Numbered from the stretch's first letter, positions 9,104 through 43,781 are shown. The stretch: 64,000 nucleotides of DNA from Desulfuromonadales bacterium (GCA_029210745.1 JARGFI010000007.1:1623-65622); one strand, 5' to 3'. The notes: generated by a model not told the origin, from the letters alone. Numbers and translations are program-made.

Positions 9104-9514
9104 TTAAGCCTCCCGTGTGTCTCCACCGGATGGAGCGGTGGAACAGTGAGTGAGTTTATGCATGACGGATGTCAGTTCTTTAATCCTCACCGGTTTGTTC
9201 AGGTATTCAGATGCTCCGAAGTTCATCGCTTCGAGGTATGAACTGATATCACCGTAGGCGGTGACCATGATGATTTTTATTTCCGGTCGAAGTTTTTGCG
9301 CTCGTTTAAGAAAATCGAGGCCGTTCATTCCCGGCATGTTGACATCACTGATAACCAGTTGATAGTTTGTCGTATGTAGCATGTCCAGAGCTTCATCGCC
9401 GTTTCCTGCACTGCTGACGTTATACCCTTCGTTCTGCAATAATTTGCACAGGACAACGCGGGAATTTTCCTCATCATCGAGAACGAGTATGTTGTGGAAT
9501 TGTAGTTGCGCCAT
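9104..9514 (-). CDS. Single-domain response regulator
   Basis: ILVLDDE, SDVNMPGMNG, VTAYG, KP; start moved to ATG 9514 behind GAAAGGGA. Confidence 0.88.
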   Translation of the reverse strand: MAQLQFHNILVLDDEENSRVVLCKLLQNEGYNVSSAGNGDEALDMLHTTNYQLVISDVNMPGMNGLDFLKRAQKLRPEIKIIMVTAYGDISSYLEAMNFGASEYLNKPVRIKELTSVMHKLTHCSTAPSGGDTREA

Positions 9515-9653
9515 GACGTCCCTTTCATGAGTGAATGGTAGCATGGCGTTGCTGTCTGTCAAGCTGATACATCCAAATAAATCACGCTATTACAGCGGGT
9601 TGGAAGAGGTCCAGGGGGCATGATCACGGTCGATTGACGGGCCGGATCTGGCA

Positions 9654-10187
9654 TCATTTCTTGAGCAGGGCCGCGACGCGTTCCCGCAGTTGCTCAGGTT
9701 TGAATGATTTTGAGGAAAAGGCGTCGGCACCGCAGTTAGCGAGTTCGGGCGTCGGGGTGTCGTTCACGATTGTGCCGCTGAGAATCAAAAAACGGGTTGC
9801 ACTCAAGGACCTGAACGATTTAATTTTTTGAACGATTACGGCGCCGCTGATGTCCGGCAGGACGAGATCCAGAATTACCAGCTGAGGATGTTCCTGGGCA
9901 ATCATTTGTAAAGCGTCGTTGCCGCTGGCTGCGGTTAAAATATTCACGTCCAGTGAAGACAAAATGTCTGACAGGATATTGCGAAATACGTTTGAGTCGT
10001 CCACGATGAGGATCTTCGGACGAGCAGCGTTGTTCGTTTCCTGGCTAGCGACGGTCGCTTTGTCGGCCAGTGAAATCGAAAAAACATGCTCACAGGCAGG
10101 GCATTTGATACTGGTTGTCAGTTTCCGGGTTTTTCCCGGCTTGACCTTGTAGCGCGCTGCGCAGGAAGGGCATTCAATCAACAGCAT
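9654..10187 (-). CDS. MJ0042-type zinc ribbon + receiver domain protein
   Basis: CPSC...CPAC then LIVDDS and LDLVLPD. Confidence 0.85.
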   Translation of the reverse strand: MLLIECPSCAARYKVKPGKTRKLTTSIKCPACEHVFSISLADKATVASQETNNAARPKILIVDDSNVFRNILSDILSSLDVNILTAASGNDALQMIAQEHPQLVILDLVLPDISGAVIVQKIKSFRSLSATRFLILSGTIVNDTPTPELANCGADAFSSKSFKPEQLRERVAALLKK

Positions 10188-10202
10188 GCGCTCCTCCGTG
10201 AA

Positions 10203-10949
10203 TCAGTTCGCCGGGCGAAAAAAGATGATATCGTGGTTGCCTTGTAACAGGATGGGCTCTTGATTAAGTTGCAGCTTAACCTGCGCAGGATCAGTAATGT
10301 GGACCGTGGCCTGAGTGTTGATTTTCCAGCGCAAACGTGAACCCTGACTCAGATTATAGCGTTGCTGAGGGCGATTGTCGATGGTCAGAACGATTTGTGT
10401 CGCCCCCGTTGCGCTCAATTGCAACACCCCCCGGCGAGCCAGCGATATTTTTATGGGGAGCGCTTGCTCCGGCTTTGCAACTTTCATCGGTAGTGCAGCG
10501 GGAGCTACAGGTGGGGACAATTCCGGCGCCGGTAAAGTGTCTGCTGGCGGTGGTGCCGTCGGTATCTGCAAAGAAGAGATTTGCTCTGATAAAAAAAACC
10601 AGTAGCCGACCAACAGCAGCGCTGATAATACGACAACGACAAAATGGATTCTCCATCGCGGCAGAACTTCTTGCCGTGGCGGGGGCACGCTGTCGGTTGC
10701 TGAGGCGTCGCGTTGGGAAATATATGCAGCCACCATCCGGTCGGCGTCAAGCCCGAGGAAATCAGCGTAATTGCGCAGAAAACCGGTGACAAATGTTGTG
10801 CCTGGAAGTTTGGTGTAGTCCTCAGCTTCAAGGGCGGCGAGATATTCCCGGCGGATGCGTGTTTTGGCAGCAATCTCGTCAAGAGACAAGCCAAGCGTTG
10901 TGCGCCGCTCTTCCAGCGTGGTTCCGATAGCGAGGTCTGTTGTCATCAT
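10203..10949 (-). CDS. rodZ: RodZ-like HTH membrane protein
   Basis: HTH (LSLDEIAAKTRIR..LE..GFLRNYA..LGLD), one TM, C-terminal beta domain; follows the TPR gene as in pilF-rodZ. Confidence 0.75.
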   Translation of the reverse strand: MMTTDLAIGTTLEERRTTLGLSLDEIAAKTRIRREYLAALEAEDYTKLPGTTFVTGFLRNYADFLGLDADRMVAAYISQRDASATDSVPPPRQEVLPRWRIHFVVVVLSALLLVGYWFFLSEQISSLQIPTAPPPADTLPAPELSPPVAPAALPMKVAKPEQALPIKISLARRGVLQLSATGATQIVLTIDNRPQQRYNLSQGSRLRWKINTQATVHITDPAQVKLQLNQEPILLQGNHDIIFFRPAN

Positions 10950-31328: not shown

Positions 31329-32117
31329 TTACTTTTTCCCTGGACGGGTCGCGTAGATTAACAGTTTGCGATCGGTATAACTTTCAACTTCACCGGCAAA
31401 TGTCTCAATTTGAAAGAAATCCTGAATTTTCATCGGTGCCTCAGCGAAGAACCGGTTAAGTTGCTGAGTCGCTTCACGCTTCATTCCCGCGCGTGCCGCC
31501 CATTCGGGAAAATCATGGGTTTTGGGAATGATCCGCGTTTCGTGCAGGATCAGCCCGGAGTCATCGATCATTTTAACCCACTCATCTCGGGTGTAAGCGC
31601 GGATATGCGTCGGATCGCGCATCTTTTCCATTGTTTGATAGAACTCGACAATCTCGGGGTCTTCCGGCATCAGGGTGTCGATGATCACCATGCGTCCGTC
31701 ACGTCGCAGTACGCGATGAAATTCTTTCAACGCACGCGGCACATCGGGGAAGTGGTGCGGGGCAATGCGGCAGGTCAGTAATGTGAAAGCTCCGGCGGGG
31801 AAGGGCAGGTCCTCGGCATCGGCCTCGCGAAAGGTAACGTTGTCGACGCCACCTTCCTCGGCAACATATTCCTGGGCTTTCTTGAGCATTTGCATGGTCA
31901 AATCGGAGGCCACGACGTTGCGCACCAGCGGTGCGAAGAAGAGGGCCGTGTGTCCGCCACCGCAGGCGATGTCAAGGAGGTTATCATCCAACGTTGGCTG
32001 CAACAGTTCGCGAGCGGCAAGCAGGTCGTCACCGGTGGCAAAACCTTTATTGCGGATATAACTGTCGGCGGACTTGCCGAACTGTTCACGGACTTTATCT
32101 TTAAAGCGCTCACCCAT
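31329..32117 (-). CDS. Class I SAM-dependent methyltransferase
   Basis: LDIACGGG, ADAEDLPF, CRIAPHHF. Confidence 0.9.
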   Translation of the reverse strand: MGERFKDKVREQFGKSADSYIRNKGFATGDDLLAARELLQPTLDDNLLDIACGGGHTALFFAPLVRNVVASDLTMQMLKKAQEYVAEEGGVDNVTFREADAEDLPFPAGAFTLLTCRIAPHHFPDVPRALKEFHRVLRRDGRMVIIDTLMPEDPEIVEFYQTMEKMRDPTHIRAYTRDEWVKMIDDSGLILHETRIIPKTHDFPEWAARAGMKREATQQLNRFFAEAPMKIQDFFQIETFAGEVESYTDRKLLIYATRPGKK

Positions 32118-32595: not shown

Positions 32596-33588
32596 ATGGA
32601 ATCTGTACTCAGTCTGTTGGCTGAACTTGGCGCGGAACTGCTGCGCGAGTTTTTGTATATCCTGCCTTATCTGGCGTTTGGCGTGTTTCTCGAAGCAGTC
32701 ATCCGGACACTCAAATGGCATGTCAAGATTCGCACAGCGTTAACCCGCTACGGGTTGCTGGCGATACCATTGGCGGCATTGCTCGGGGTGGCCAGCCCGC
32801 TCTGTGCGTGTGCGACCCTGCCGCTGGTTATCTCGCTTCTGGTGGGGGGCTTGCCCCTTGCTCCAGCCATGGCGTTGCTGGTGACGTCACCACTGATGAG
32901 TCCGGCATCGTTTACGATGCTCTCCGGCATGCTCGGGGGGGAGTGGGCGCTAACCGTGGCCGTTTGTGCGGTAGTTCTTGGCCTTTTCGCCGGTTATGTC
33001 ACGCACTTTCTCGGTCGCTACGGGTTCTCCACCGAAGTTGTCTTTCGTCAGGAACTCCCCAAAGGGAACTTTCATGATCCCGCCTATCCGGTGGAAGAGC
33101 TGCGCTGTGATTGTGGACAGCAACTCTCACATCGCGTCGATCGCTGCACCCATAACAAGTTTCTGGTCTTTGGCGCGCGGTTCTGGGAAGGCAGCCTCAA
33201 AATCGGCAAGTTTGCACTGATCGGCCTGGTGATTGAGGTGGTGGCGATGAAGTTTATCCCCAATGGCTGGATTACCGGGCTACTGGAGGGGGAGGGGATT
33301 GCACCGATTTTTACCCTGACGCTGGCAGCGATACCGTTGCATCTGCCGCAGGTCACCGCAGCTTCCATGGTGTACGGTTTTTACCTCCCCGATCCGGGGC
33401 AAACAATCCCCCTTGCGGCCGGGCCGGGAATTGCGATGCTGGTCGGTGGCCCGGTGACGGCGTTACCGGTGATGGCGGTCTTTATCTCGATGTTCAAACC
33501 ACGGGTTCTGGCTTTGTATATCACCCTCTGTGTCGGGGGAACGATTTCACTGGCGTTGCTATGGCGTCTGGTGTCGCCACTGGTGTGA
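32596..33588 (+). CDS. ArsP/DUF318 family permease
   Basis: PLCACATLP, TSPLMSP, about 8 TMs, central Cys/His loop. Confidence 0.85.
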   Translation: MESVLSLLAELGAELLREFLYILPYLAFGVFLEAVIRTLKWHVKIRTALTRYGLLAIPLAALLGVASPLCACATLPLVISLLVGGLPLAPAMALLVTSPLMSPASFTMLSGMLGGEWALTVAVCAVVLGLFAGYVTHFLGRYGFSTEVVFRQELPKGNFHDPAYPVEELRCDCGQQLSHRVDRCTHNKFLVFGARFWEGSLKIGKFALIGLVIEVVAMKFIPNGWITGLLEGEGIAPIFTLTLAAIPLHLPQVTAASMVYGFYLPDPGQTIPLAAGPGIAMLVGGPVTALPVMAVFISMFKPRVLALYITLCVGGTISLALLWRLVSPLV

Positions 33589-33630
33589 TGGCGAAGTCCT
33601 GAATTGATGATCAAGGTGAGAACAGGCCGT

Positions 33631-34674
33631 TCAGGTCATCTTGATGAGCAACCGCCCCGGTTCCGCGTTCGTGACTGCGCCGATGCCCCAGCAGCCGGTC
33701 TCTCTCGCCGTCAACTCAGCACATAATGGCGCAGCTTTCTCCGGCGCAACCGCGATCAGCAAGCCGCCGGAGGTTTGCGGGTCGCTGATGATGTCGAGGA
33801 TATCGGGCGCGATGCGGTCGGCATCGATCACTTTCCCCAGATAGTAATCACGATTATTGTAGCCACCCGCCGGGATCATGCCGATCGCCGCCATCTCCCG
33901 GACCTGCGGATAGACCGGTAGCGCGGCGCCGTCAAGCGTCAGGCCGACATTGCTGGCCAGAGCAAGTTCCAGTGCGTGGCCGAGGAGGCCGAAGCCGGTG
34001 ATGTCGGTGCAGGCATGAACCCCGATCGTCAGCATCGCCTCGGCGGCGGCGCGGTTGAGGGTATTCATCCCGGCAATCGCGGCACTGATGTCGGTTGCGG
34101 TGAGAATCTCCCCCTTGAGGGCAGTGGCGAGGATGCCGGTGCCGAGGGGCTTGGTGAGAATCAGCTGATCTCCCGGTTGCGCCCCGACCGTTGAAATCAG
34201 GTGCGCCGGGTTGACCAGTCCGGTCACCGCCAGCCCGTACTTCGGTTCGTCATCCTCGACCGTATGCCCACCGACGATGGTGGCCCCGGCATCATGGCAG
34301 GCGTCCGCCCCGCCGCGCAGAATCTCGACCAGAAGCGATCGGTCGAGGCACTTGGGAAAGCCGATCAGGTTGAGTGCGGTCAAGGGACGCGCACCCATGG
34401 CGTAGAGGTCAGAAAGCGCATTGGCGGCGGCGATGCGCCCGAACAGATAAGGGTCATCGACAATCGGCGTGAAAAAATCGACCGACTGCACCAGCGCGAG
34501 GTCGGCGGCAATACGATAGACCCCGGCATCGGCGGAGGGGATCGCGGCACTGAGGAAATTTTCATCCGGATAATTTGGTAATTGACGCAGCACCTGCGCC
34601 AACGGCTCAGGAGCCAGTTTGGCGGCTCAACCGCTGGAGCGGGACAGGCTGGTCAGCTTGATATGATCTGCCAC
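33631..34674 (-). CDS. selD: Selenide, water dikinase; selenoprotein (Sec16 encoded by UGA at 34627-34629)
   Basis: GTG 34674 behind GAAAGGAAG gives MADHIKLTSLSRSSG-U-AAKLAPEPL, in frame with DFFTPIVDDP, ANALSD, GGHT, TDITGFGLLGH, DPQTSGGLL. Confidence 0.95.
34582..34602 (-). promoter_or_regulatory. SECIS-like hairpin in selD
   Basis: UUGGCGCAG-GUG-CUGCGUCAA, 9-bp stem (one GU), G-starting loop 33 nt after the UGA. Confidence 0.7.
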
Positions 34675-34707
34675 AGACTTCCTTTCATAAAAGCGTCGCT
34701 TGATTTA

Positions 34708-36612
34708 TTAGTTCAACTGCCACGCCACGCGGACGTCGTCTTGGCGCAGAGTGTACTTTAATTCGTCGAAATGTTCCAGCAATGCCTGGGTCTGTTTGCG
34801 GGCGCTGCCGATCAGGTCGCGAAACTCTGCCAGGGTCAGGGTTTTATGCTGTGAAAAGTGCGCTCGCAGCTGGTTGAGCGCCTGCGCGTAGCTGTCACGA
34901 TGGAGAAAGCTTTCGGCGTTGAGCCGCACCAGCTCTCCCTGGGCAAAGAGGTAGCCGAACAGATCGTCGCACCCGGCCAGCTCCAGTCCCAGGCGTTCGA
35001 GCATCTCCTGGCGATTCTTTGCCTGCATGCCGTCCTCCCGGTAAAGCTGTTCAATCCGATCGATCTGTTCCTGCTGGGCAGGCGTCGGTCGGGGCGTGAA
35101 GTCAGGGAGGGCAATAGTGCCATTGGTCTCACATAATCTTCCGGTTGCGGTCAGGTCATTGAGCAGTTGATCGAAACTCTTCGGCGCCAGCTGTCTGGGC
35201 AGTGAACTTTTCAGGGTTGCGCGGGGAATGCCAGTCAGGAGCGGTTGCCGGTGGTGAAATGCGGCGGTTACATCATGCAGGCGGCGTTGCCAGGCGCGGT
35301 GCGTGGCAACGGTCAGCCATTGTTCACCGAGCTGGACAATGTGGTCCTGAGCGGCGAGTGCCTGGAGATTTTCCTGAATGCGCTCTTGCCCCAGACCGGC
35401 GAGCTGTTCCAGTTCCTTGAGCTTGCAGCAGGTCGCCTGCTCGATTTTCTGGAGCAGAAAGGCCTTCTCGCCAGATTCCAGCTCCTGCAGCGCGTGCATG
35501 ACGTCGGCACGGAAGCGGCGATGTTTGACCGGTCGCGAGTCGAGGACTTTGCCACCGCCGATGGTTGTCATCGGTGAGTAAGAGCGGATGATGAAGTGAT
35601 CTTCACGATGGGCAACCAACGGCCGGTCGAGATGAATCTGGGCGATGGCACTCTCCCCCGGTTGCAACTCATCGCGGTCAAGGAGGGCGACCAGTCCGAC
35701 CACGTGGGCGGTGCCGAGATAAAAGTGCACCGGGTCGCGAAACTTTAGCCGCCGTGGCGCGTTGGCGAGCAAGGTCAGGCGGACATCGATGCGTTCGGTC
35801 TGTTCAAAAATACCGGGGGTGGCGGCGACCGCGCCGCGCTGCAAAAGGGCGCGTTCAACGCCGGTCAGATTCAGGGCGGCGCGCTGTCCGGCGCGGGCGG
35901 CAGGAATTTTTTTGCCGTGGACCTGAACTTCCCTGACGCGGGTTTCGATCCCGCGGGGCAATAATTCCAGCGTGTCGCCAACCTGAACGGTACCGGCGAG
36001 CAGCGTTCCGGTGACGACAGTGCCGAAACCGGGGACGCTGAAATGGCGGTCAATCGGCAGCCGCAACGGCCCCTCATGATCTTTGATTGCCAGTGCCGCG
36101 GCTTCGGTTGCGATCCGAGCCTTGAGTGCAGCGATGCCGTCCCCCGTAATCGCCGAGACCCGCAGCAGTGGGGCGCCTTTCAACAAGGTGGCAGCAACCT
36201 CCTCGCGCACTTCTTCCTCGACAATATCGATCCAGTCCTCCTCGGCGAGATCACATTTGGTCAGTACGATAATGCCGCGTTCGATGTCGAGCAAGTTGAG
36301 GATCTGGAGATGTTCGCGGGTCTGCGGCATCACCCCTTCATTGACGTCGATCACCAGCAGCACCAGATCGATCCCGCCGATACCGGCGAGCATGGTGCTG
36401 ATGAAACGCTCATGACCAGGGACATCGACCACCCCGGCGAGGCTGCCATCCGGCAGGCGAAAGGGGGCGAATCCGAGTTCAATCGAAATGCCGCGTTCTT
36501 TTTCTTCGCGCAGGCGGTCGGTTTCAATCCCGGTCAGGGCGCGGATCAGTTCGGTCTTGCCGTGATCAACATGCCCGGCGGTACCGATAATTAGATGATT
36601 AACAGGATTCAT
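34708..36612 (-). CDS. selB: Selenocysteine-specific elongation factor
   Basis: [32 protein letters not shown]-terminal winged helix (SARK..ALLEHFD); ATG 36612 overlaps the selA stop. Confidence 0.97.
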
Positions 36613-38024
36613 TGCGCCGGGGACGGCAGCAATGCTGCGGCGAGAGATGTGACGAGGGCAGGTTCTTCGTCGGGGTGCAGGGTACGCAGGTGGAGCAATA
36701 AGCGCTCGTCGCGGATACAGCCGATGACCGGGGGAGCGGTGTGGCGCAGATGTTTGGCGAGGGTGTCGACCGAGCAATCGGTCGGCGCCACGGCGACGGC
36801 GTAGCCGGGGAGTTCGGTCAGGGGCAGAGCTCCCCCACCGATGGCGGCGCTGGCGGTGATCGTATCGATTCGGGCAGTGGCGCCAAGCGCTGCGGCCAGC
36901 TTGCCGGTGAGTATTGTGGCACGCTGGTGTAATGCCTCCTCCGGCGCGGTGAGCATCCGCAACGTCGGTATCTCACGTGCGGCGCGGTCACGGTCGAGGT
37001 AAAGCATCAGCGTTGCCTCAAGCGCCGCCAGCGTCATTTTGTCGATACGCAAGGCGCGCGCCAGCGGGTGCTGGCGAATCTTGTCGAGCGCCCATTTCTG
37101 GCCGACGATAATCCCCGCCTGCGGGCCGCCGAAGAGTTTGTCGCCACTACAGGTGACGACATCGAGTCCCGTCTTGACGGTGTCCGCGACCGTCGGTTCA
37201 GCGGGCAATCCGTAAGCACTGAGGTCAAAGAGCAGCCCGCTCCCCAGATCTTCCATCACCGGAACTTTGGCTTCGGCGCCGAGCTTGACCAGCTGTGCGC
37301 CGCTGACCTCGGCGGTGAAGCCGACGATGCGGTAGTTGCTGGTGTGGATTTTGAGCAGCAGTCCGGTTTCGGCGTTGAGGGCGTCGCGATAATCTTGCAG
37401 ATGGGTTTTGTTGGTGGTGCCGATTTCGCGCAAACGCACGCCGCTGGCGGCCATGACATCGGGAACCCGGAAGGAACCGCCGATCTCAATCAGTTCGCCG
37501 CGTGAGACCGGCGCTTCTTTCCCCTGTGCCAGTGCCGCCAGCGCCAGCAGCACGGCACCGGCGTTGTTGTTGACGACCGTCGCGGCTTCAGCCCCGGTGA
37601 GGCGACAGAGCAACGCCTCCACATGGCTGTAGCGGTGCCCACGGGAGCCGGTCGCCAGATCATATTCCAGATTCGAATAACTGCGTGAGATCGCGGTTGC
37701 CGCGTTAAGGGCGGCTTCGCACAGTGGTGCGCGGCCGAGATTGGTATGGAGCAGGGTGCCGGTGGCGTTGATCACCGGGCGCAACGAGGGGCGCATTTTC
37801 TGTTGCGCCAGCTGTGCCGCGCGGTGGGCGACGGCGGCAGGAGAAAGGTCGAGCGTCGCTGTCGGCGCATCAAGGAGTTCGCGGCGCAGTTGCGCCACCG
37901 TTTCGCGAGCCGCCTCGGTCAGCAAGAGCGCCGGGCAGTCCTTCGCCAACTCGGTCAGCGGCGAAGTGGCGAGGAGCCGGTCGATGGCGGGAAGATCTTT
38001 TAACCGCTGCTGGGTCAGATTCAT
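36609..38024 (-). CDS. selA: L-seryl-tRNA(Sec) selenium transferase
   Basis: VINATGTLLHTNLGRA, VNNNAGA, SRGELIEIGGSFR, EDLGSG, SGDKLFGGPQAG. Confidence 0.97.
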   Translation of the reverse strand: MNLTQQRLKDLPAIDRLLATSPLTELAKDCPALLLTEAARETVAQLRRELLDAPTATLDLSPAAVAHRAAQLAQQKMRPSLRPVINATGTLLHTNLGRAPLCEAALNAATAISRSYSNLEYDLATGSRGHRYSHVEALLCRLTGAEAATVVNNNAGAVLLALAALAQGKEAPVSRGELIEIGGSFRVPDVMAASGVRLREIGTTNKTHLQDYRDALNAETGLLLKIHTSNYRIVGFTAEVSGAQLVKLGAEAKVPVMEDLGSGLLFDLSAYGLPAEPTVADTVKTGLDVVTCSGDKLFGGPQAGIIVGQKWALDKIRQHPLARALRIDKMTLAALEATLMLYLDRDRAAREIPTLRMLTAPEEALHQRATILTGKLAAALGATARIDTITASAAIGGGALPLTELPGYAVAVAPTDCSVDTLAKHLRHTAPPVIGCIRDERLLLHLRTLHPDEEPALVTSLAAALLPSPAQ

Positions 38025-38087
38025 CGGTCGGGGCTTTCCGGGCTGGCGGGTTAAAGGCAACGCAATGACGGCGTGAAAGTATTCAGG

Positions 38088-38116
38088 AATCTACATGAAA
38101 TGGCAGTGTTTTTCAA
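38088..38116 (-). promoter_or_regulatory. Putative sigma70 promoter of selABD
   Basis: Minus strand TTGAAA-17nt-TAGATT with TG just 5' of the -10. Confidence 0.55.
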
Positions 38117-38301
38117 GCGCCGGTTCAGTGCATGAGTTTTTTGATTTTTCCGGTTCCAGAAGAGTAGCTATGCGCGGGATTTATATCAGGGGAGATTATT
38201 CAGCAGTTGACGACGCGGCAAGGCCATAGTTCAGGGATGCCGCTGAATTGGCGATCACCTGGACGGGATTCGATCCGCTCTTGTCGAGGGCTGCTGTTGA
38301 A

Positions 38302-38604
38302 TCAGCACACGTTTTTAAGCGTGAACAGGGTACCGATAATGTCGCGTGTCTGATCACAGGTGACACGATAAAACACTTCGACGCCGTCGCGGTGTCCTTC
38401 AATGATACCTTTGTTTTTAAGCAGCGCCAGGTGCTGTGAAACCGTTGCCTGAGGCAGTTCCAGACATTCCCATATTTTTTTGACGTTGCAACTTTGTGAC
38501 ATCAAGCCGGCCACAATTTTCAATCTTATCGGGTGACCAAGCACCTTGAGGATTTCCGCCTCGCGATCCAGATTGATCGTCTTGTCAAATTCGACTTCTG
38601 CCAT
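38302..38604 (-). CDS. ArsR/SmtB family regulator with four Cys
   Basis: LKVLGHPIRLKI, QATVSQHLALLK, FYRV; ends in Cys then TGA. Confidence 0.92.
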   Translation of the reverse strand: MAEVEFDKTINLDREAEILKVLGHPIRLKIVAGLMSQSCNVKKIWECLELPQATVSQHLALLKNKGIIEGHRDGVEVFYRVTCDQTRDIIGTLFTLKNVC

Positions 38605-38703
38605 GACATACCTCAATGATTATGATTATTCATATATAGTTAAAAGTTGATTATTATCGAAAGACTAATTCGTGTCGGACGGGGTTGTCAAGTGCAAATT
38701 ATT

Positions 38704-40359
38704 TCAACAGGAAGTTTCCCTGGTAACCGGCAAGGTGAAGCAAACACAGGTGCCGATGCCAGGTTTGCTGGAGATGTTGATCTCTCCGCCATGTTCTTCG
38801 ATAAAGTGTTTGACAATAGTCATCCCCAGTCCGGTGCCGCCGATTGAGGTGTGCAGTGCGCTGCCACGATAAAATTTGTCAAAAACGCGGGCCACCTGCT
38901 CCTCCGTCATGCCGATCCCCTGGTCGTGAACGGCAATCTGACATTGATCTTTGTCACCGGTGCAGACAATGCGAATCGTGCCGCCAGCGGGGGAATATTT
39001 TACCGCATTGCCAAGGATATTTTCCAAAACCTGAATGATCGCTTCGGCGTCGACATCAAGGATCGGGTCGTCAGCAAGCTCGGTTACAAACTGGTGCTGC
39101 GTACTGCTTTTGGCAAAGCCGGGAATGGTGCGATCAAGTAGAAACTGCAACGCGGTGGGCGTTTTTTTCAGGGACAATTTCTCTCCGGCTTCGATGCGGC
39201 TGATATCGAGCAGGTTGTTGACCAGATGTGACAGGCTCTGTGCCTTGTCGTGGATCATGGTGAGAAATTCGTGTTGCTCGTCGCGGGGAAATTCATCGTT
39301 GAGCATGAGTTCGGAAAAACCGATGATTGCCGTCAGCGGGGTGCGAAACTCATGTGCTGCGGTTGAAACGAATTCACTTTTCATACGCTCGATGGTCCGC
39401 TCCCGCGTGACATCGCGCAAGGCAATGACCGTCCCGCCTGATTGGGGGGTAGACCTTGGCAGCAGGGATATTTTTGTTGCCAGAACAGTTTCGTCCTTAT
39501 CCGTACCGATGGAAATATCAACAGACCCCAAAGTTTTTCCTGAGTCAATCAGCTCAAGACAAGCAGGCCAGAGACGATTGCGATGATCAAACAGCTGGTC
39601 CAGTGTTTTTCCCTGACTGGTAAGGGGGATGCGGAGGAGCTCAGCCGCCGCGTGATTCATCAACGCGATCCGACCGTCAAGGTCGGTCACCAGCAGACCA
39701 TCACCCGACGCAGAAAAGATGGCCTTGATGCGTTCCTTGGTTTCATTGGTCGTTTCGAGGGCCTGGCGCAGCGCTTGCTCATTACTGATGCGGGCGGTGA
39801 TATCACTGTAAAGGATAATGACATGGGTTAATTGTTTATTTTTATGATCGTGAATGGCTGTGCCAATGACTTCGTAGCAGCGCCCGTTCAAGGTGACTTC
39901 GTTGCGCTGTTCAACCTGGTCGTTGGCGAGGACGTTTTGCAGGACGCAGACTGGCGGGGAGTCTTTTTCATGACAGACGATCTCATGGCAAAAGGAACCA
40001 ATCAGGGGGAGACCGCCGGGGTTGAAAAATTCGTTGACTTTGTTGTTGCCGGCGACAATCCGGCCGGTCGGATCAACGACCATGATGGCTGCGCCGACCG
40101 CATTGAGAATGGCGTGGATCTCATCATGGGCCAGTGTCAGTCGTTGATTTGTTTCTTCCAGGTGGGCGAGAATATGCTTGAACGATTCGCTGACGATGCC
40201 GATCGGGTCGAGTGATATCAGCGCTTCGTTATCAAGCTCGTCTGGATTAAGGGGCAAGGTGCCGATGGTGTCGAGCAGTTGATCAACTTTTGACCGGATA
40301 TAGTGGTAAGCCCGTTCTTCGACAGGAGAGGGCTGCTGCGGTATAACAGGACTAGTCAT
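38704..40359 (-). CDS. Soluble PAS-PAS histidine kinase
   Basis: No TM; two PAS-like segments (first has CHEIVCH...C); H-box AHEFRTPL, NILGNAVKYS, DQGIG, GTGLG. Confidence 0.9.
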   Translation of the reverse strand: MTSPVIPQQPSPVEERAYHYIRSKVDQLLDTIGTLPLNPDELDNEALISLDPIGIVSESFKHILAHLEETNQRLTLAHDEIHAILNAVGAAIMVVDPTGRIVAGNNKVNEFFNPGGLPLIGSFCHEIVCHEKDSPPVCVLQNVLANDQVEQRNEVTLNGRCYEVIGTAIHDHKNKQLTHVIILYSDITARISNEQALRQALETTNETKERIKAIFSASGDGLLVTDLDGRIALMNHAAAELLRIPLTSQGKTLDQLFDHRNRLWPACLELIDSGKTLGSVDISIGTDKDETVLATKISLLPRSTPQSGGTVIALRDVTRERTIERMKSEFVSTAAHEFRTPLTAIIGFSELMLNDEFPRDEQHEFLTMIHDKAQSLSHLVNNLLDISRIEAGEKLSLKKTPTALQFLLDRTIPGFAKSSTQHQFVTELADDPILDVDAEAIIQVLENILGNAVKYSPAGGTIRIVCTGDKDQCQIAVHDQGIGMTEEQVARVFDKFYRGSALHTSIGGTGLGMTIVKHFIEEHGGEINISSKPGIGTCVCFTLPVTRETSC

Positions 40360-40600
40360 TGTTGCCCTCGACCGTAATTTGATACGTATTGTCCGTTTTG
40401 ACCACTTCACAGTGCAAACCCATGTTGATCACCGCCTGCGGAACCGTGACTGTTGCGTGGCGATTATCGGTAAGGAAGATCAGCACAATACGTCGTTCTT
40501 TGAGCTCACTCTGGCGGAGGTTGATCTCCCGTAGTGCGGTCAGCAGTGTCGATGGGCAGACCTGCCCGCGTAAGTCGAACTCACAGGTTGGAGTGTTCAT
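40352..40600 (-). CDS. TusA/SirA/YeeD family sulfur (selenium) carrier
   Basis: FDLRGQVCP motif, 82 aa. Confidence 0.88.
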   Translation of the reverse strand: MNTPTCEFDLRGQVCPSTLLTALREINLRQSELKERRIVLIFLTDNRHATVTVPQAVINMGLHCEVVKTDNTYQITVEGNND

Positions 40601-41726
40601 GGGCAACTCCCTTCATGGGGACAGTGGCAGTCAGGACGAAGCGCGTCAGCAGCAGCCCGCCCAGCCAGGCACCAGGCAGCAGGCCGACAAGGAAGAGCAG
40701 GCTTTGCAGCGCGAAGATCGGCAGCCCTCCCCACAGATGCCAGATATTGCAGCCGGGAGTGATGCGCGAACCGAGGGCCATGATGATCCCGCCGATAAAG
40801 GCTCCGAGCAATTGGCGTCGCGGCGGCCATGGAGTTAGCCGCCATTCGTTGAGGAGCAAGGCCGAAAACGCCGCCCCCCCGGTAATCCCGATCAGCAGCG
40901 GATATTGGATGGCGGCGATACCGTCGAACGCCGGGCCTGCTCCGCCGCTCAGATGAACCTTGCCGAGTGGCGCGACATAATCCAGCGGCAGTGCCTGGAA
41001 AAATGCCGTAGCTTCAACATGGGCGGGCCATAATAAATATTCCACCTGGGCGGCGACCTTGGCGTAGGCGGTGGTAATTCCTAACGGCATACCGGTCGCC
41101 ATTACCGATACGATGCCGATCAGCGCCAGCAGCAACGCCGCCTGATACGGCGTCATATGTCCTGCGGGCAAGAATGTTCGTGCTGTGGAGGCGGGTGCTT
41201 TGCGGCGATAAACAATGGTGCATGTTGCTGCTGTCAGGAGAACCAGGAAAATTTCTTCTGGCAGATGGAGCGCCTGTGGCAAGGTAATAATATCCGCTCG
41301 CCATGGTTTTGTCACCACCAGGCTTTTCCACCAGGGATGAATTTCTGCGTACAGGGCGCTGCCGCAAATCAGCCCGAACAGAGCCACGGCGGCCAGCTTG
41401 CTCCCCGCTCCAAGGCGATAAAGGGTGCCAACGACGCAACTACCGCACAAGACCATCCCGATGCCAAAGAGAATTCCGCCGATAACGTTTGTCGGTGCGG
41501 CAGCACCAAATAATGGATAAGGGGAGTCAGTGATAAAGCCGTAGCGTCGGCCCAGATAGCTGGCCAGCGCAGTAGCGGTGACCAGCAACAGCAGAGCTTG
41601 AAGCATCTTCACATGACGAAACAAAAAGAGATCACGAAATGCGCCAGTCATGCAAAAGTCAGCGCGGTGCATGACAAATCCGGACAAAATGCCCAAAATC
41701 AGTGTGATCAAAACGACGGGCCACAT
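40581..41726 (-). CDS. YeeE/YedE family sulfur/selenium transporter
   Basis: RADFC, GG.LFGIGMVL.GSC..G.L, GSRITPGCN; start moved to ATG 41726. Confidence 0.9.
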   Translation of the reverse strand: MWPVVLITLILGILSGFVMHRADFCMTGAFRDLFLFRHVKMLQALLLLVTATALASYLGRRYGFITDSPYPLFGAAAPTNVIGGILFGIGMVLCGSCVVGTLYRLGAGSKLAAVALFGLICGSALYAEIHPWWKSLVVTKPWRADIITLPQALHLPEEIFLVLLTAATCTIVYRRKAPASTARTFLPAGHMTPYQAALLLALIGIVSVMATGMPLGITTAYAKVAAQVEYLLWPAHVEATAFFQALPLDYVAPLGKVHLSGGAGPAFDGIAAIQYPLLIGITGGAAFSALLLNEWRLTPWPPRRQLLGAFIGGIIMALGSRITPGCNIWHLWGGLPIFALQSLLFLVGLLPGAWLGGLLLTRFVLTATVPMKGVAHEHSNL

Positions 41727-41844
41727 AAGATTAATCCCCCAGCCTTCGAATGATGAACATTCTCCAGTGCTTTGTAGCTTAAATTGCGTAAACATGCAAC
41801 TATTCTAACTTTGGTTGCTCTCGCCTTGCGGCAGCGGAAAGGGC

Positions 41845-42015: not shown

Positions 42016-42957
42016 ATGACACTGAATATTATTCTTTTTTTCGCGGGATTGTTATTGCTCTACTATGGAGCTGAATATCTGGTTACCGGAAGTACCCACC
42101 TGGCATTGTCCTATGGAGTCAGGCCATTGGTGATTGGACTGACGGTCGTCTCTTTCGCCACCAGCATGCCGGAGTTGATGGTGTCGCTCTTTGCCTCGAT
42201 CAAGGGGTCATCGGCGATCGCCGCAGGAAATATTATTGGTTCAAACGTTGCCAACATCGGTTTGATCCTGGGGAGCGCGGCTTTGCTTTTCCCGCTACGG
42301 AGCGGGCGGGGGATCCTGTTTCGCGAATTGCCTTACATGGTGTTGGCCTCTGTTGTTGTTTACGGGTTTTCCTGGGATAGCCAGCTGACCGCCGGTGAAG
42401 GCGTTGTGCTGCTGTTTATGCTGGTGGCTTTTCTTTATTACTGCATCCGTACCGCCCGTGAGGTGGAGGTTGACACCTCTTTTGTTGACGATACCAGGGA
42501 GATCGTTGTGCCGACGCGGGGGCGCTGGGTTGTCTATGTGATCCTCGGTATCGTTGGTCTCGGTGTCGGCGCGGAGCTGATGGTGCGCTCAGCCGTAGCG
42601 ATTGCCCTCACCCTCGGTGTCTCCGAGGCGGTGATCGGCATGAGTGTCGTTGCCGTTGGAACCAGTCTGCCAGAACTGGCGGCGTCGGTAGTGAGTGCCT
42701 GGAAGGGTGAAATGGAATTGAGTATCGGCAATGTGATCGGCAGCAACATCTTTAATCTGCTCTTTGTGTTTGGTTTTTGCACGCTGATTCGCCCTGTTGA
42801 GATCGAACGATCCTTGCTTTTTTGTGAATTGCCGGTGATGCTGCTCTTCAGTATGGCCCTCTGGCCGTTGATGTACTTTGGTCATGCTCTTGATCGCAAA
42901 AAAGGATTTGGCCTGCTGGTGGCCTATGCCGGATTTATGGTAATGATCTTTCAATGA
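42016..42957 (+). CDS. Calcium/sodium antiporter (YrbG, CaCA family)
   Basis: Alpha repeats FATSMPEL..GNIIGSN and GTSLPEL..GNVIGSN. Confidence 0.93.
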   Translation: MTLNIILFFAGLLLLYYGAEYLVTGSTHLALSYGVRPLVIGLTVVSFATSMPELMVSLFASIKGSSAIAAGNIIGSNVANIGLILGSAALLFPLRSGRGILFRELPYMVLASVVVYGFSWDSQLTAGEGVVLLFMLVAFLYYCIRTAREVEVDTSFVDDTREIVVPTRGRWVVYVILGIVGLGVGAELMVRSAVAIALTLGVSEAVIGMSVVAVGTSLPELAASVVSAWKGEMELSIGNVIGSNIFNLLFVFGFCTLIRPVEIERSLLFCELPVMLLFSMALWPLMYFGHALDRKKGFGLLVAYAGFMVMIFQ

Positions 42958-43781
42958 AAACTTTTACGAAAATTTTTATCGCCCTGATAGTGCTGTGCGT
43001 CCCGACGCTGGTCATGGCCAACGCGCCAGACCGTCCACCGGCGTTCCTTAACGGGAGTCATTACCGTTACGATATTTCCTTTCTTTGGTTTGATCGCCTG
43101 GCGTCAGGGGAGCTGAGTCTTGCCGCCACGGCGATCCCTGGGCAATATCAGGCGACGCTCGAAGCGCGCACCCTGGGTGTTGCCGCCTGGTTAACCGGAA
43201 ATCGCGTGCATCGTTACGTTGCGTTGATGGAAGCAACCCCTGATGATGGCAGGCTGAGGACGCTGCGTTTTGAATCACACGTGATCAAGGGACAAGGCAA
43301 AAAACTGAAAGATCGTGCCAAGGAGTATGTTTTTAACTACGAAAAAAAGCGGGTCGATTTTCGTCGCGCCAGTAACGGTCAGTTCGGTCCGATCGAGGTG
43401 CTGCCCATGGGGGATACCCCGCTGAACGATTTTCTGACCGTCTTTACAAATTTCAGGATGGGATTTTTCGGTTCCCCCGCGCCGGGAGAAACTCTCGAAC
43501 TGGATACCTTTGAGCGTGGTCATCCTGCCAAAATAATCGTCACGGCAACGCCGTTGTCCCCTGCTGAGCACCAAACGTTTTTTCCATCAGAGGGAAAGCT
43601 TTTTCAGATCAGCATGGGGGAGGATATTCTTGATACTGGTGGCGGAAAAGTTTTTCTCTGGTTTGATTCCTTGGAACGACCAGCGCGCGCGGTGGTGGAA
43701 AACGTGATCGGGACAGGGGACGTCAAGGGCACGTTGCGTGAAGAACAGGTAGCCGGGGAGGGTGGACAGATAAAAAAATGA
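42954..43781 (+). CDS. DUF3108-like exported protein
   Basis: Signal peptide, Y.ISFLWF..LA.G; ATGA overlap with the antiporter stop. Confidence 0.65.
   Translation: MKTFTKIFIALIVLCVPTLVMANAPDRPPAFLNGSHYRYDISFLWFDRLASGELSLAATAIPGQYQATLEARTLGVAAWLTGNRVHRYVALMEATPDDGRLRTLRFESHVIKGQGKKLKDRAKEYVFNYEKKRVDFRRASNGQFGPIEVLPMGDTPLNDFLTVFTNFRMGFFGSPAPGETLELDTFERGHPAKIIVTATPLSPAEHQTFFPSEGKLFQISMGEDILDTGGGKVFLWFDSLERPARAVVENVIGTGDVKGTLREEQVAGEGGQIKK

Follow-up and report, generated by a model that had tools for sequence, protein, structure and literature searches.

YedE/YedF-type pairs, in which a membrane protein is matched with a TusA-like protein, are linked to selenium. The related TsuA and TsuB proteins (YeeE and YeeD; S. 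thermophila, 6LEO and 8J4C) form a thiosulfate import system in which the gene for the TusA-like partner lies next to that for the channel (PMC11582611). In Hyphomicrobium denitrificans, the YeeE-like proteins SoxT1A and SoxT1B, which have three cysteines, are proposed to import sulfur for signalling, and TusA is suggested to be the carrier to a cysteine-bearing regulator in SoxR/sHdrR signalling (Li et al. 2024, PMC11582611). The receiver described there is an ArsR-type repressor with two cysteines, and the article does not use the words kinase or two-component. We found no description of a trio of YeeE, TusA and a sensor in open-access full texts and bioRxiv.

Here we analyzed 64,000 nucleotides from a Desulfuromonadales bacterium (GCA_029210745.1 JARGFI010000007.1:1623-65622), a stretch that we call the window and whose positions are counted from its first letter. 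An earlier note on this DNA had read its yeeE-like, tusA-like, kinase and arsR genes, together with selA, selB and selD, as an integrated selenium island. The comparison with other genomes gives a different picture, in which yeeE, tusA and the sensor gene form a unit of their own.

Gene content of the locus

The seven co-oriented minus-strand genes (33631-41726) and the convergent ArsP_1 permease listed in the earlier note are all present, and all eight lie where it had placed them (Table 1). Its statement that the accessory proteins carry cysteine motifs holds, as judged from conservation in alignments, for YeeE, TusA, the PAS domain of the kinase and ArsR. Among the same-order loci compared, the permease is found in such a context only in the same-genus genome, and nothing that we found connects it with the other genes. 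No Rfam match was obtained between 31000 and 43000 (E ≤ 0.1), and no tRNA genes were found within the window.

Table 1. Features of the locus, with positions in the window
Feature	Position	Strand	Basis
YeeE/TsuA-like membrane channel (Sulf_transp), trio gene 1	40581..41726	-	PF04143, 164.7 bits
TusA-like sulfur carrier	40352..40600	-	PF01206, 36.2 bits vs cut-off 28.6
Soluble sensor histidine kinase, PAS-PAS-HisKA-HATPase_c	38704..40362	-	Pfam domains
Sensor N-terminal helical domain, residues 13-88, predicted TusA docking site	40099..40326	-	conserved motif, AF2 model
Sensor first PAS domain, C125 + C130 + C139 (C-x4-C-x8-C)	39802..40092	-	PAS_4 match
arsR promoter region with operator-like motif at 38627-38642	38617..38703	-	promoter-like site
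ArsR/SmtB-family regulator	38302..38604	-	NF033788, 77 bits vs cut-off 55
selA, L-seryl-tRNA(Sec) selenium transferase	36609..38024	-	TIGR00474
selB, ORF as listed	34708..36777	-	TIGR00475
selD with selenocysteine codon TGA	33631..34674	-	TIGR00476
Convergent ArsP_1-family permease	32596..33588	+	PF03773, 98.6 bits
CaCA antiporter	42016-42957	+	TIGR00367, 247.7 bits
hyp275, secreted	42954-43781	+	CaCA neighbour

The sel genes resemble the canonical bacterial selA-selB-selD machinery, and we found nothing unusual in the set: all three products score well above the equivalog cut-offs (SelA, 601.2 bits vs 267.9; SelB, 377.8 vs 242.25; SelD, 344.8 vs 125), and SelD carries selenocysteine. The start codon of selA, read in the sequence, is ATG, with a promoter-like site upstream at 38116-38088. 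Position 1 of the SelB model aligns to residue 62 of the listed ORF, and the true start of selB is probably near 36600. The selD gene has a GTG start with a ribosome-binding site (34672-34674); codon 16 from this start is an in-frame TGA (34627-34629), and read-through translation gives SSG-U-AAK, at what we take to be the active-site Cys/Sec position in the N-terminal glycine-rich loop, by comparison with the E. coli motif. Judged from this reading frame, SelD is the selenoprotein form. A hairpin (-25.7 kcal/mol, z -2.1) is predicted 3' of the TGA. Genes for tRNA-Sec are present on two other contigs (C22 and C97), i.e. selC is not adjacent to selABD.

yeeE, tusA and the sensor gene form a conserved unit

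The first protein of the trio belongs to the YeeE/YedE superfamily. It has a full-length Sulf_transp domain (profile positions 1-310 of 310) and three channel cysteines that align with the TsuA cysteines of S. thermophila YeeE (PDB 6LEO) and are also conserved in its orthologues, which are 43-52% identical across the order. A longer ORF reaching 41795 is over-extended, as the same-genus genome has a TGA at this place and orthologue alignments begin at residue 27. Several orthologue matches were marked as containing one TGA, and we rejected the idea that YeeE is a selenoprotein because each of these TGAs is either the stop codon or 5' of the actual start. Although the protein shares its Pfam family, the three cysteines and a neighbouring gene for a TusA-like partner with TsuA, its best PDB match has an E value of 1e-17 and it stays far below the cut-offs of the TsuA/YeeE thiosulfate transporter models (73.6 vs 645 for NF041049 and 97.1 vs 400 for NF052577). 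It also misses the models for the selenium-type YedE/FdhT (56.5 vs 200 for TIGR04112 and 115.5 vs 350 for NF033796), and a bona fide transporter of this type is encoded elsewhere in the genome (contig C30, 385.9 bits).

The second protein is a member of the TusA family with a Cys-Pro loop, C15-P16, that is invariant in 89 of 89 aligned sequences. It had no PDB sequence match at E ≤ 0.01 and reached 15.8 against a cut-off of 79 for the selenium-metabolism protein YedF (NF008242). The window pair resembles YedE/FdhT with YedF/FdhU in its superfamily, in the pairing with a TusA-like protein and, here, in its position near sel genes, but differs in scoring below all of the respective cut-offs. The yeeE and tusA frames overlap by 20 nt, and the tusA stop codon overlaps the ATG of the kinase gene (11 nt, ATGACTAG).

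We recognized the trio by the order yeeE, tusA, sensor and by the sensor motif YIRxK...EELD...DPIGI, all present in the window. TusA and the sensor are encoded in 17 of 17 same-order orthologous loci with downstream sequence, and 19 of the 41 genomes of the order have the trio. A wider set of 80 loci was collected through the sensor N-terminus, so that the sensor is present in them by construction; TusA is encoded upstream of it in all 80 and YeeE in 77. Two of the three loci without YeeE are at contig ends, and the third (L111) has TusA and the sensor with no YeeE within 3.2 kb. By their titles, the source records belong to Desulfuromonadales, Geobacteraceae, Desulfobulbales, Nitrospirota, Chromatiales and Deferrisomatales. 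The yeeE-tusA-sensor group is thus a tightly conserved unit that is widespread across phyla.

The sensor and its predicted complex with TusA

The third protein is a two-component histidine kinase with HisKA (77 bits) and HATPase_c (105.6 bits) domains. A scan of 13 proteins encoded between 31329 and 45469 revealed no receiver domain, and the kinase gene has no response regulator gene next to it; some orthologues have a fused REC domain or an adjacent sigma-54 response regulator. Sensors of this kind occur with HK, HK plus REC or GGDEF-EAL outputs. The 85 complete sensor ORFs (five duplicate contigs included) comprise 34 HK forms, 27 HK forms with a C-terminal tail (REC in three of three checked), 18 GGDEF-EAL forms and six with other outputs. 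The N-terminal domain and the cysteine-bearing PAS domain are kept while the output varies. The interchange is not recurrent, because the sensor-domain tree needs only one change from HK to GGDEF-EAL.

The N-terminal domain has the invariant motif YIRxK...GTxxLxxEELD...DPIGI..F, and the window sensor carries all invariant columns of both sensor alignments. It has no Pfam or NCBIfam match and no PDB sequence match at E ≤ 1. An AF2 model places helices at residues 13-32, 45-51 and 53-88, and a structure search with the sensor N-terminus returned generic PAS/LOV matches, with none for the helical domain. In the PAS domain, C130 and C139 are at least 90% conserved (89 sequences), and two or three cysteines lie in a loop between the modelled helices 125-129 and 140-147. 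The most distant trio sensors, those of L035 and L036, have no PAS cysteines, though they keep the N-terminal domain and the trio.

When TusA was modelled together with sensor residues 1-205, the predicted complex scored 0.66, and the best of three controls scored 0.00. Of 157 solved complexes, 116 attain the mark used for such scores, as do 2 of 215 mismatched pairs; these counts hold only roughly here because author-built alignments were used. The runs agree in 100% of contacts, with partner pLDDT of at least 87. It is unlikely that the score reflects memory of a solved complex, because the N-terminal domain has no PDB sequence relative at E ≤ 1. The predicted interface comprises sensor residues 30-67 and TusA residues 14-20, 23-30 and 48-61, and takes in nine of the 14 TusA columns, and nine sensor columns, that are invariant or nearly so; the PAS cysteines lie outside it. 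The helical domain of the sensor is thus predicted to dock the cysteine loop of TusA.

arsR and the sel genes are separate from the trio

Orthologues of arsR are present in 41 of 41 genomes of the order, with 69-83% identity. The gene is divergently adjacent to CaCA/hyp275 in 14 of 18 loci and in five of six 20-kb regions, none of which contains the trio or sel genes. Because these neighbours of arsR pair with it elsewhere, the trio appears to have been inserted between arsR and CaCA/hyp275 in this genus. ArsR is encoded near the trio in none of the 80 wider loci and, among same-order loci, only in this genus and, as a paralogue, in L035 and L036. Hence, arsR belongs to a separate, order-wide unit that faces CaCA/hyp275.

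The regulator is a member of the ArsR/SmtB metalloregulators. C39 and C47, which lie in one helix, are invariant in 20 of 20 sequences, and a C-terminal cysteine is found in 16 of 20. With the persulfide-sensing repressors BigR and SqrR it shares the ArsR/SmtB fold and the C-terminal cysteine, and BigR (3PQJ) is its second-best PDB match. It differs in that its invariant cysteines are C39 and C47 and not at the N-terminal sensing position, presumably the one that is alanine in the window protein in the 3PQJ alignment; together with a score of 61.9 against a cut-off of 155 (NF040642), this led us to reject an identity as a BigR/SqrR persulfide sensor. A promoter-like site (CCGACA-17-AATAAT, 38678-38650) precedes arsR, and the upstream regions of its orthologues have TTGACA and a -10 element followed by a ATTCATATAT-like sequence, in a consensus read by eye. 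The operator-like motif matches nowhere in the window except at arsR. No operator shared among the upstream regions of arsR, selA and yeeE was found, and a repeat search around arsR and selA gave short pairs only, compatible with chance.

The sel genes are likewise not partners of the trio beyond this genus. Among the 17 same-order loci, only that of the same-genus genome has them next to the trio, and the 80 wider loci contain no SelA and no credible SelB. The only wider locus with SelD (L070) encodes it on the opposite strand, 1.8 kb from the trio. Matches near other trios that resemble SelD (29-30%) or SelB (26-36%) were not counted as sel genes; one that was checked with Pfam is RF3. arsR lies upstream of selA in two of 30 selA loci, both from this genus. 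Within the order, profiling is uninformative because SelA is nearly universal (39 of 41 genomes); one 100% complete genome with the trio (G028) gave no SelA hit. The earlier note had named a location of the module away from sel genes as one finding that would speak against its single circuit of trio, arsR and selABD, and this is where synteny placed the trio clade. Of the import-relay-sense circuit that it had proposed, yeeE-tusA-kinase stands as a real unit, with synteny across phyla, overlapping frames and a predicted TusA-sensor complex, whereas its extension to one selenium circuit with arsR and selABD is not supported, the linkage not being kept outside the genus. The evidence gives neither the trio nor arsR as a regulator or supplier of selABD.

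Discussion

We consider it fairly probable that the trio, arsR and selABD are three independent units that lie together only in this genus. For the trio itself, with about even confidence, we propose an undescribed transport-coupled sensor, in which a sulfur carrier, loaded by a channel of its own, is the ligand of a new helical domain that controls kinase or c-di-GMP output in sulfur-cycling anaerobes from several phyla. The YeeE-type channel would sample the surroundings by importing some of a sulfur compound, perhaps thiosulfate, polysulfide or zero-valent sulfur, and the TusA-like carrier would receive the sulfur on Cys15, by analogy with TsuA/TsuB. The cysteine loop of TusA would then dock onto the N-terminal helical domain of the sensor, as the model predicts, and docking would alter the output of the kinase, possibly, and more speculatively, with transfer of sulfur to the PAS cysteine pair. 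This transfer is the weakest step, because the PAS cysteines lie outside the predicted interface and are missing from the sensors of L035 and L036. The trio probably reports sulfur supply. We favor sulfur over selenium as the putative ligand because of the TsuA-like cysteines, the failure of the YedE models and the presumed sulfur-cycling lifestyles of the taxa named above. In the remaining part of the locus, arsR would be a core regulator, autoregulated from its own conserved promoter and ancestrally facing CaCA-hyp275, and selA-selB-selD(Sec) would be ordinary selenocysteine machinery.

The match of the three channel cysteines to solved TsuA, and the TusA-like partner encoded next door as TsuB is to TsuA (PMC11582611), could also mean that the trio serves chiefly in assimilatory thiosulfate import of the TsuA/TsuB type, with the kinase as a mere neighbour that regulates something else. 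We regard this as unlikely, since a sensor with the same N-terminal domain follows tusA in every same-order locus (17/17) and, by construction, in every wider one, with TusA preceding the sensor in all 80, and since the frames overlap, the predicted interface falls on conserved residues and the TsuA equivalog scores are far below the cut-offs. The constant attachment of a sensor gene and the lack of a PDB sequence match for the window TusA (E ≤ 0.01) also set the trio apart from TsuA-TsuB. The PAS loop with its two or three cysteines invites another reading, in which this domain senses redox state through a bound metal or iron-sulfur cofactor, and TusA and YeeE serve only to build or repair it. 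PAS kinases with cysteine-ligated Fe-S are known, for example NreB, but here only two cysteines per chain are nearly invariant, L035 and L036 retain the trio and a sensor with the N-terminal domain but not these cysteines, and the predicted TusA contact is with the N-terminal domain and not with the PAS domain, which makes a cofactor sensor very improbable.

Selenium enters most directly if YeeE imports a selenium (or sulfur) oxyanion, TusA passes it on to SelD, and selABD expression is adjusted by the kinase and ArsR. All seven genes point the same way with little space between them, a second genome of the genus has the same arrangement, L070 has SelD near its trio, and YedE/YedF-type pairs are tied to selenium in the literature (PMC11582611). 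Selenium as the ligand of the trio is conceivable since four of the five trio-bearing genomes tested have SelD, and read-through from the trio into arsR-selABD could occur since a search of the minus strand from the kinase gene through arsR to selA showed nothing resembling a terminator. Against such a circuit, sel genes accompany the trio only in this genus among the same-order loci and SelA is absent from the wider ones, arsR is missing upstream of selA in 28 of 28 loci outside the genus and has CaCA/hyp275 as its partner, SelA and the trio differ in distribution (39 vs 19 of 41 genomes, with a trio in G028 without a SelA hit), and the YedE models were missed while a true YedE is encoded on another contig. 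We therefore judge the selenium circuit to be very unlikely, and it is equally doubtful that, in this genus, read-through into arsR-selABD ties selenocysteine synthesis to the supply of chalcogen. The outcome is negative as regards selenium biology, and control of sel genes by the kinase or ArsR should not be inferred from this locus.

The transport-coupled sensor that we favor is closest in concept to SoxT1A/SoxT1B-TusA-SoxR/sHdrR signalling (Li et al. 2024, PMC11582611). There the receiver is a repressor, whereas the trio would address a soluble PAS kinase or GGDEF-EAL enzyme through an N-terminal docking domain. The window ArsR belongs to a type other than SoxR/BigR, and its linkage to the trio does not extend beyond the genus; we rejected a SoxT-TusA-ArsR-type signalling unit, as a conserved YeeE-ArsR linkage has no support beyond this genus. 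The trio is a candidate for the way in which anaerobes sense external sulfur compounds, and the predicted interface names residues to mutate. With a sensor input domain that has no Pfam, NCBIfam or PDB sequence match, the channel, the carrier and the soluble sensor make up a compact and testable trio.

Gene content of the region

The gene string described in an earlier note on this DNA was borne out by ORF listing and family scans. The reading frames of yeeE and tusA share 20 nt, and those of tusA and the kinase gene share 11 nt. The yeeE ORF start at 41795 is over-extended, judging from the sister genome, which has a TGA at the matching position, and from the orthologues, which align from residue 27. 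selD starts with GTG, has a ribosome-binding site and contains an in-frame TGA (34627-34629) within SSG-U-AAK, with a hairpin 3' of this codon. The selD region is flanked by a UbiE/ArsM-like methyltransferase (31329-32117) and the ArsP_1 permease, the synteny of both being confined to the genus. No tRNA genes were found within the window; the draft genome carrying it has two tRNA-Sec genes (ARAGORN), on contigs C22 (7856-7951, complement) and C97 (624-719).

Features of the region, in window positions
Feature	Position	Strand	Basis
CaCA antiporter and hyp275 (secreted protein)	42016-43781		
YeeE-like, Sulf_transp	40581-41726	-	ORF listing and family scans
TusA-like	40352-40600	-	ORF listing and family scans
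PAS-PAS-HisKA-HATPase kinase	38704-40362	-	ORF listing and family scans
ArsR/SmtB regulator	38302-38604	-	ORF listing and family scans
selA	36609-38024	-	ORF listing and family scans
selB (ORF extent)	34708-36777	-	ORF listing and family scans
selD	33631-34674	-	ORF listing and family scans
ArsP_1 permease, convergent	32596-33588	+	ORF listing and family scans

Conservation of the yeeE-tusA-sensor trio

The yeeE-tusA-sensor trio is a conserved unit. Of 41 genomes belonging to the same order, 19 have a strong YeeE orthologue (E <= 1e-50). Regions of up to 20 kb surrounding 18 of these 19 were retrieved; one contig stops inside yeeE. In all 17 loci with downstream sequence, tusA follows, and then a gene for a protein sharing the N-terminal 230 residues of the kinase. 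A wider search, in which a single GTDB genome for each species was queried with an alignment of the sensor N-terminal region, resulted in 204 confirmed stretches, the best 80 of which were analyzed (5 lie on the same contigs as loci of the first set). Among these best 80 of 204, TusA is encoded directly upstream of the sensor in every locus and YeeE is present upstream in 77; two of the three misses are at contig ends, and the third locus, L111, truly has no YeeE within 3.2 kb. Record titles of these 80 name Desulfuromonadales, Geobacteraceae, Desulfobulbales, Nitrospirota, Chromatiales/Ectothiorhodospiraceae, and Deferrisomatales. A divergent variant of the trio (L035, 7286-11493; L036, 6765-11745) is followed by genes for a sigma-54 response regulator, a C_GCAxxG_C_C redox protein, and an ArsR paralogue.

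Sensor architecture and predicted docking of TusA

Residues 13-88 of the sensor are helical in the AF2 model (helices 13-32, 45-51, and 53-88; mean pLDDT 89.8), and searches of Pfam, NCBIfam, and PDB sequences gave no match for this element. Its invariant motif comprises Y21, R23, T35, L38, E42, L43, D52, P53, G55, I56, and F61. In the PAS domain that follows, cysteine is the majority residue at position 125, and conservation is at least 90% for C130 and C139; L035 and L036, which have the most distant sensors, lack the PAS cysteines.

The output domains vary among the 85 complete sensor ORFs, with HisKA-HATPase in 34, a kinase with a tail of ∼145 residues in 27 (a receiver domain in all three tails checked), and GGDEF-EAL in 18. 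The other six are three stand-alone sensors, one HisKA_2 kinase, and two probably broken ORFs. The stand-alone sensors (L068, L072, and L107, from Geobacteraceae) have ∼300 residues, consisting of the N-terminal domain and two PAS domains without an output domain. A quick IQ-TREE analysis of the sensor region (89 rows, with duplicates taken out) placed these stand-alone sensors as sister to the GGDEF-EAL sensors, which form one clade (1 change, SH-aLRT 96); hence, the swap from kinase to c-di-GMP output occurred once in this sample and not repeatedly. The kinase forms with and without receiver require 3-4 changes.

The complex between TusA and sensor residues 1-205 was predicted in three runs and with three controls, both partners being given as alignments. 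The complex scored 0.66 in three runs versus 0.00 for the best control; 116 of 157 solved complexes attained the score mark, as did 2 of 215 mismatched pairs, counts that hold only roughly because our own alignments were used as input. The runs agreed in 100% of contacts, with partner pLDDT of at least 87. The predicted interface involves sensor residues 30-67, including L30, G34, T35, L38, E42, L43, D44, P53, and I56, and TusA residues 14-20, 23-30, and 48-61, including C15-P16 and 9 of 14 invariant or nearly invariant TusA columns. The PAS cysteines lie outside it. The modelled complex supports, but does not show, binding of TusA to the sensor.

Relation of the trio to selenium genes

The earlier note had proposed an integrated selenium island with uptake, carrier, kinase, and repressor upstream of selA-selB-selD. 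Synteny does not support this, as the trio occurs mostly away from sel genes: among the same-order loci, sel genes lie beside it only in the genome carrying the window and a second genome of the genus. The best 80 of 204 wider loci contain no SelA and no credible SelB, and the only SelD by a trio among them is a homologue in an uncultured bacterium (L070; 45% identity, 9436-10392, opposite strand, 1.8 kb downstream). SelA is present in 39 of the 41 order genomes versus 19 for the trio; the two genomes in which no SelA was found are G010 (86% complete) and G028 (100% complete), the latter of which carries the trio. SelD was above the cut-off in four of five trio-bearing genomes checked, the fifth being a MAG of unknown completeness. 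The sel genes of the window are ordinary. The import-relay-sensing core is supported as the conserved yeeE-tusA-sensor unit; the selenium-island reading of the gene string is not supported.

The window YeeE failed both selenium-type models (56.5 versus 200 and 115.5 versus 350) and likewise both TsuA models; its three channel cysteines align with those of solved TsuA. A bona fide YedE is encoded on contig C30 of the same genome (TIGR04112, 385.9 bits versus a cut-off of 200), between genes for a PhnD-like binding protein and a GeoRSP PqqD and radical SAM/SPASM pair (33112-37107, L149). Three genomes from two other families (G037, G019, and G040; L134, L142, and L143) carry, immediately upstream of selA and co-oriented with it, a histidine-kinase-like gene that is 33-34% identical to the HisKA/HATPase part.

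arsR belongs to another unit

arsR belongs to a unit other than the trio or the sel genes. An ArsR orthologue is present in all 41 order genomes with 69-83% identity, a conservation exceeding that of SelA (47-68% identity) and YeeE, and arsR is upstream of selA in only 2 of 30 selA loci, both of the window's genus. Outside the genus, hyp275 and/or the CaCA antiporter are neighbours in 14 of 18 loci (±1.5 kb). In five of six regions of ∼20 kb, arsR faces hyp275, with or without CaCA, across 200-310 nt, and none of these regions holds the trio or a sel gene. In the window, the 3.3-kb trio lies between this pair and arsR, suggesting that in the window's genus it would have been inserted into the divergent intergenic region; another rearrangement could have had the same outcome.

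The shared elements upstream of arsR are TTGACA, a -10 element, and then a ATTCATATAT-like motif (consensus read by eye). This operator-like motif has a single match in the window (38627-38642; chance expectation 0.11). C39 and C47 of ArsR are invariant (20 of 20), and a C-terminal cysteine is present in 16 of 20. Membership of BigR/SqrR was ruled out by family score and structure-sequence comparison. arsR is an order-wide core gene that forms a divergent pair with hyp275, which is of no known family, with or without CaCA (38302-38703, 42016-43781; L154-L177).

Promoter-like sites are present upstream of arsR and of selA. Read-through coupling of the trio to arsR-selABD in the window's genus is possible, because the minus strand between the kinase gene, arsR, and selA showed no terminator-like site, but it is unsupported.

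Nearest known system

A search of open-access full texts and bioRxiv turned up no account of a YeeE-TusA-kinase or YeeE-TusA-c-di-GMP unit. Closest among described systems is SoxT1B-TusA-SoxR/sHdrR of Hyphomicrobium denitrificans (PMC11582611), in which a YeeE-like channel is proposed to pass a signal on to repressors of the ArsR type. The trio has a sensor kinase, whereas that paper mentions none. We favor sulfur as the putative ligand of the trio.
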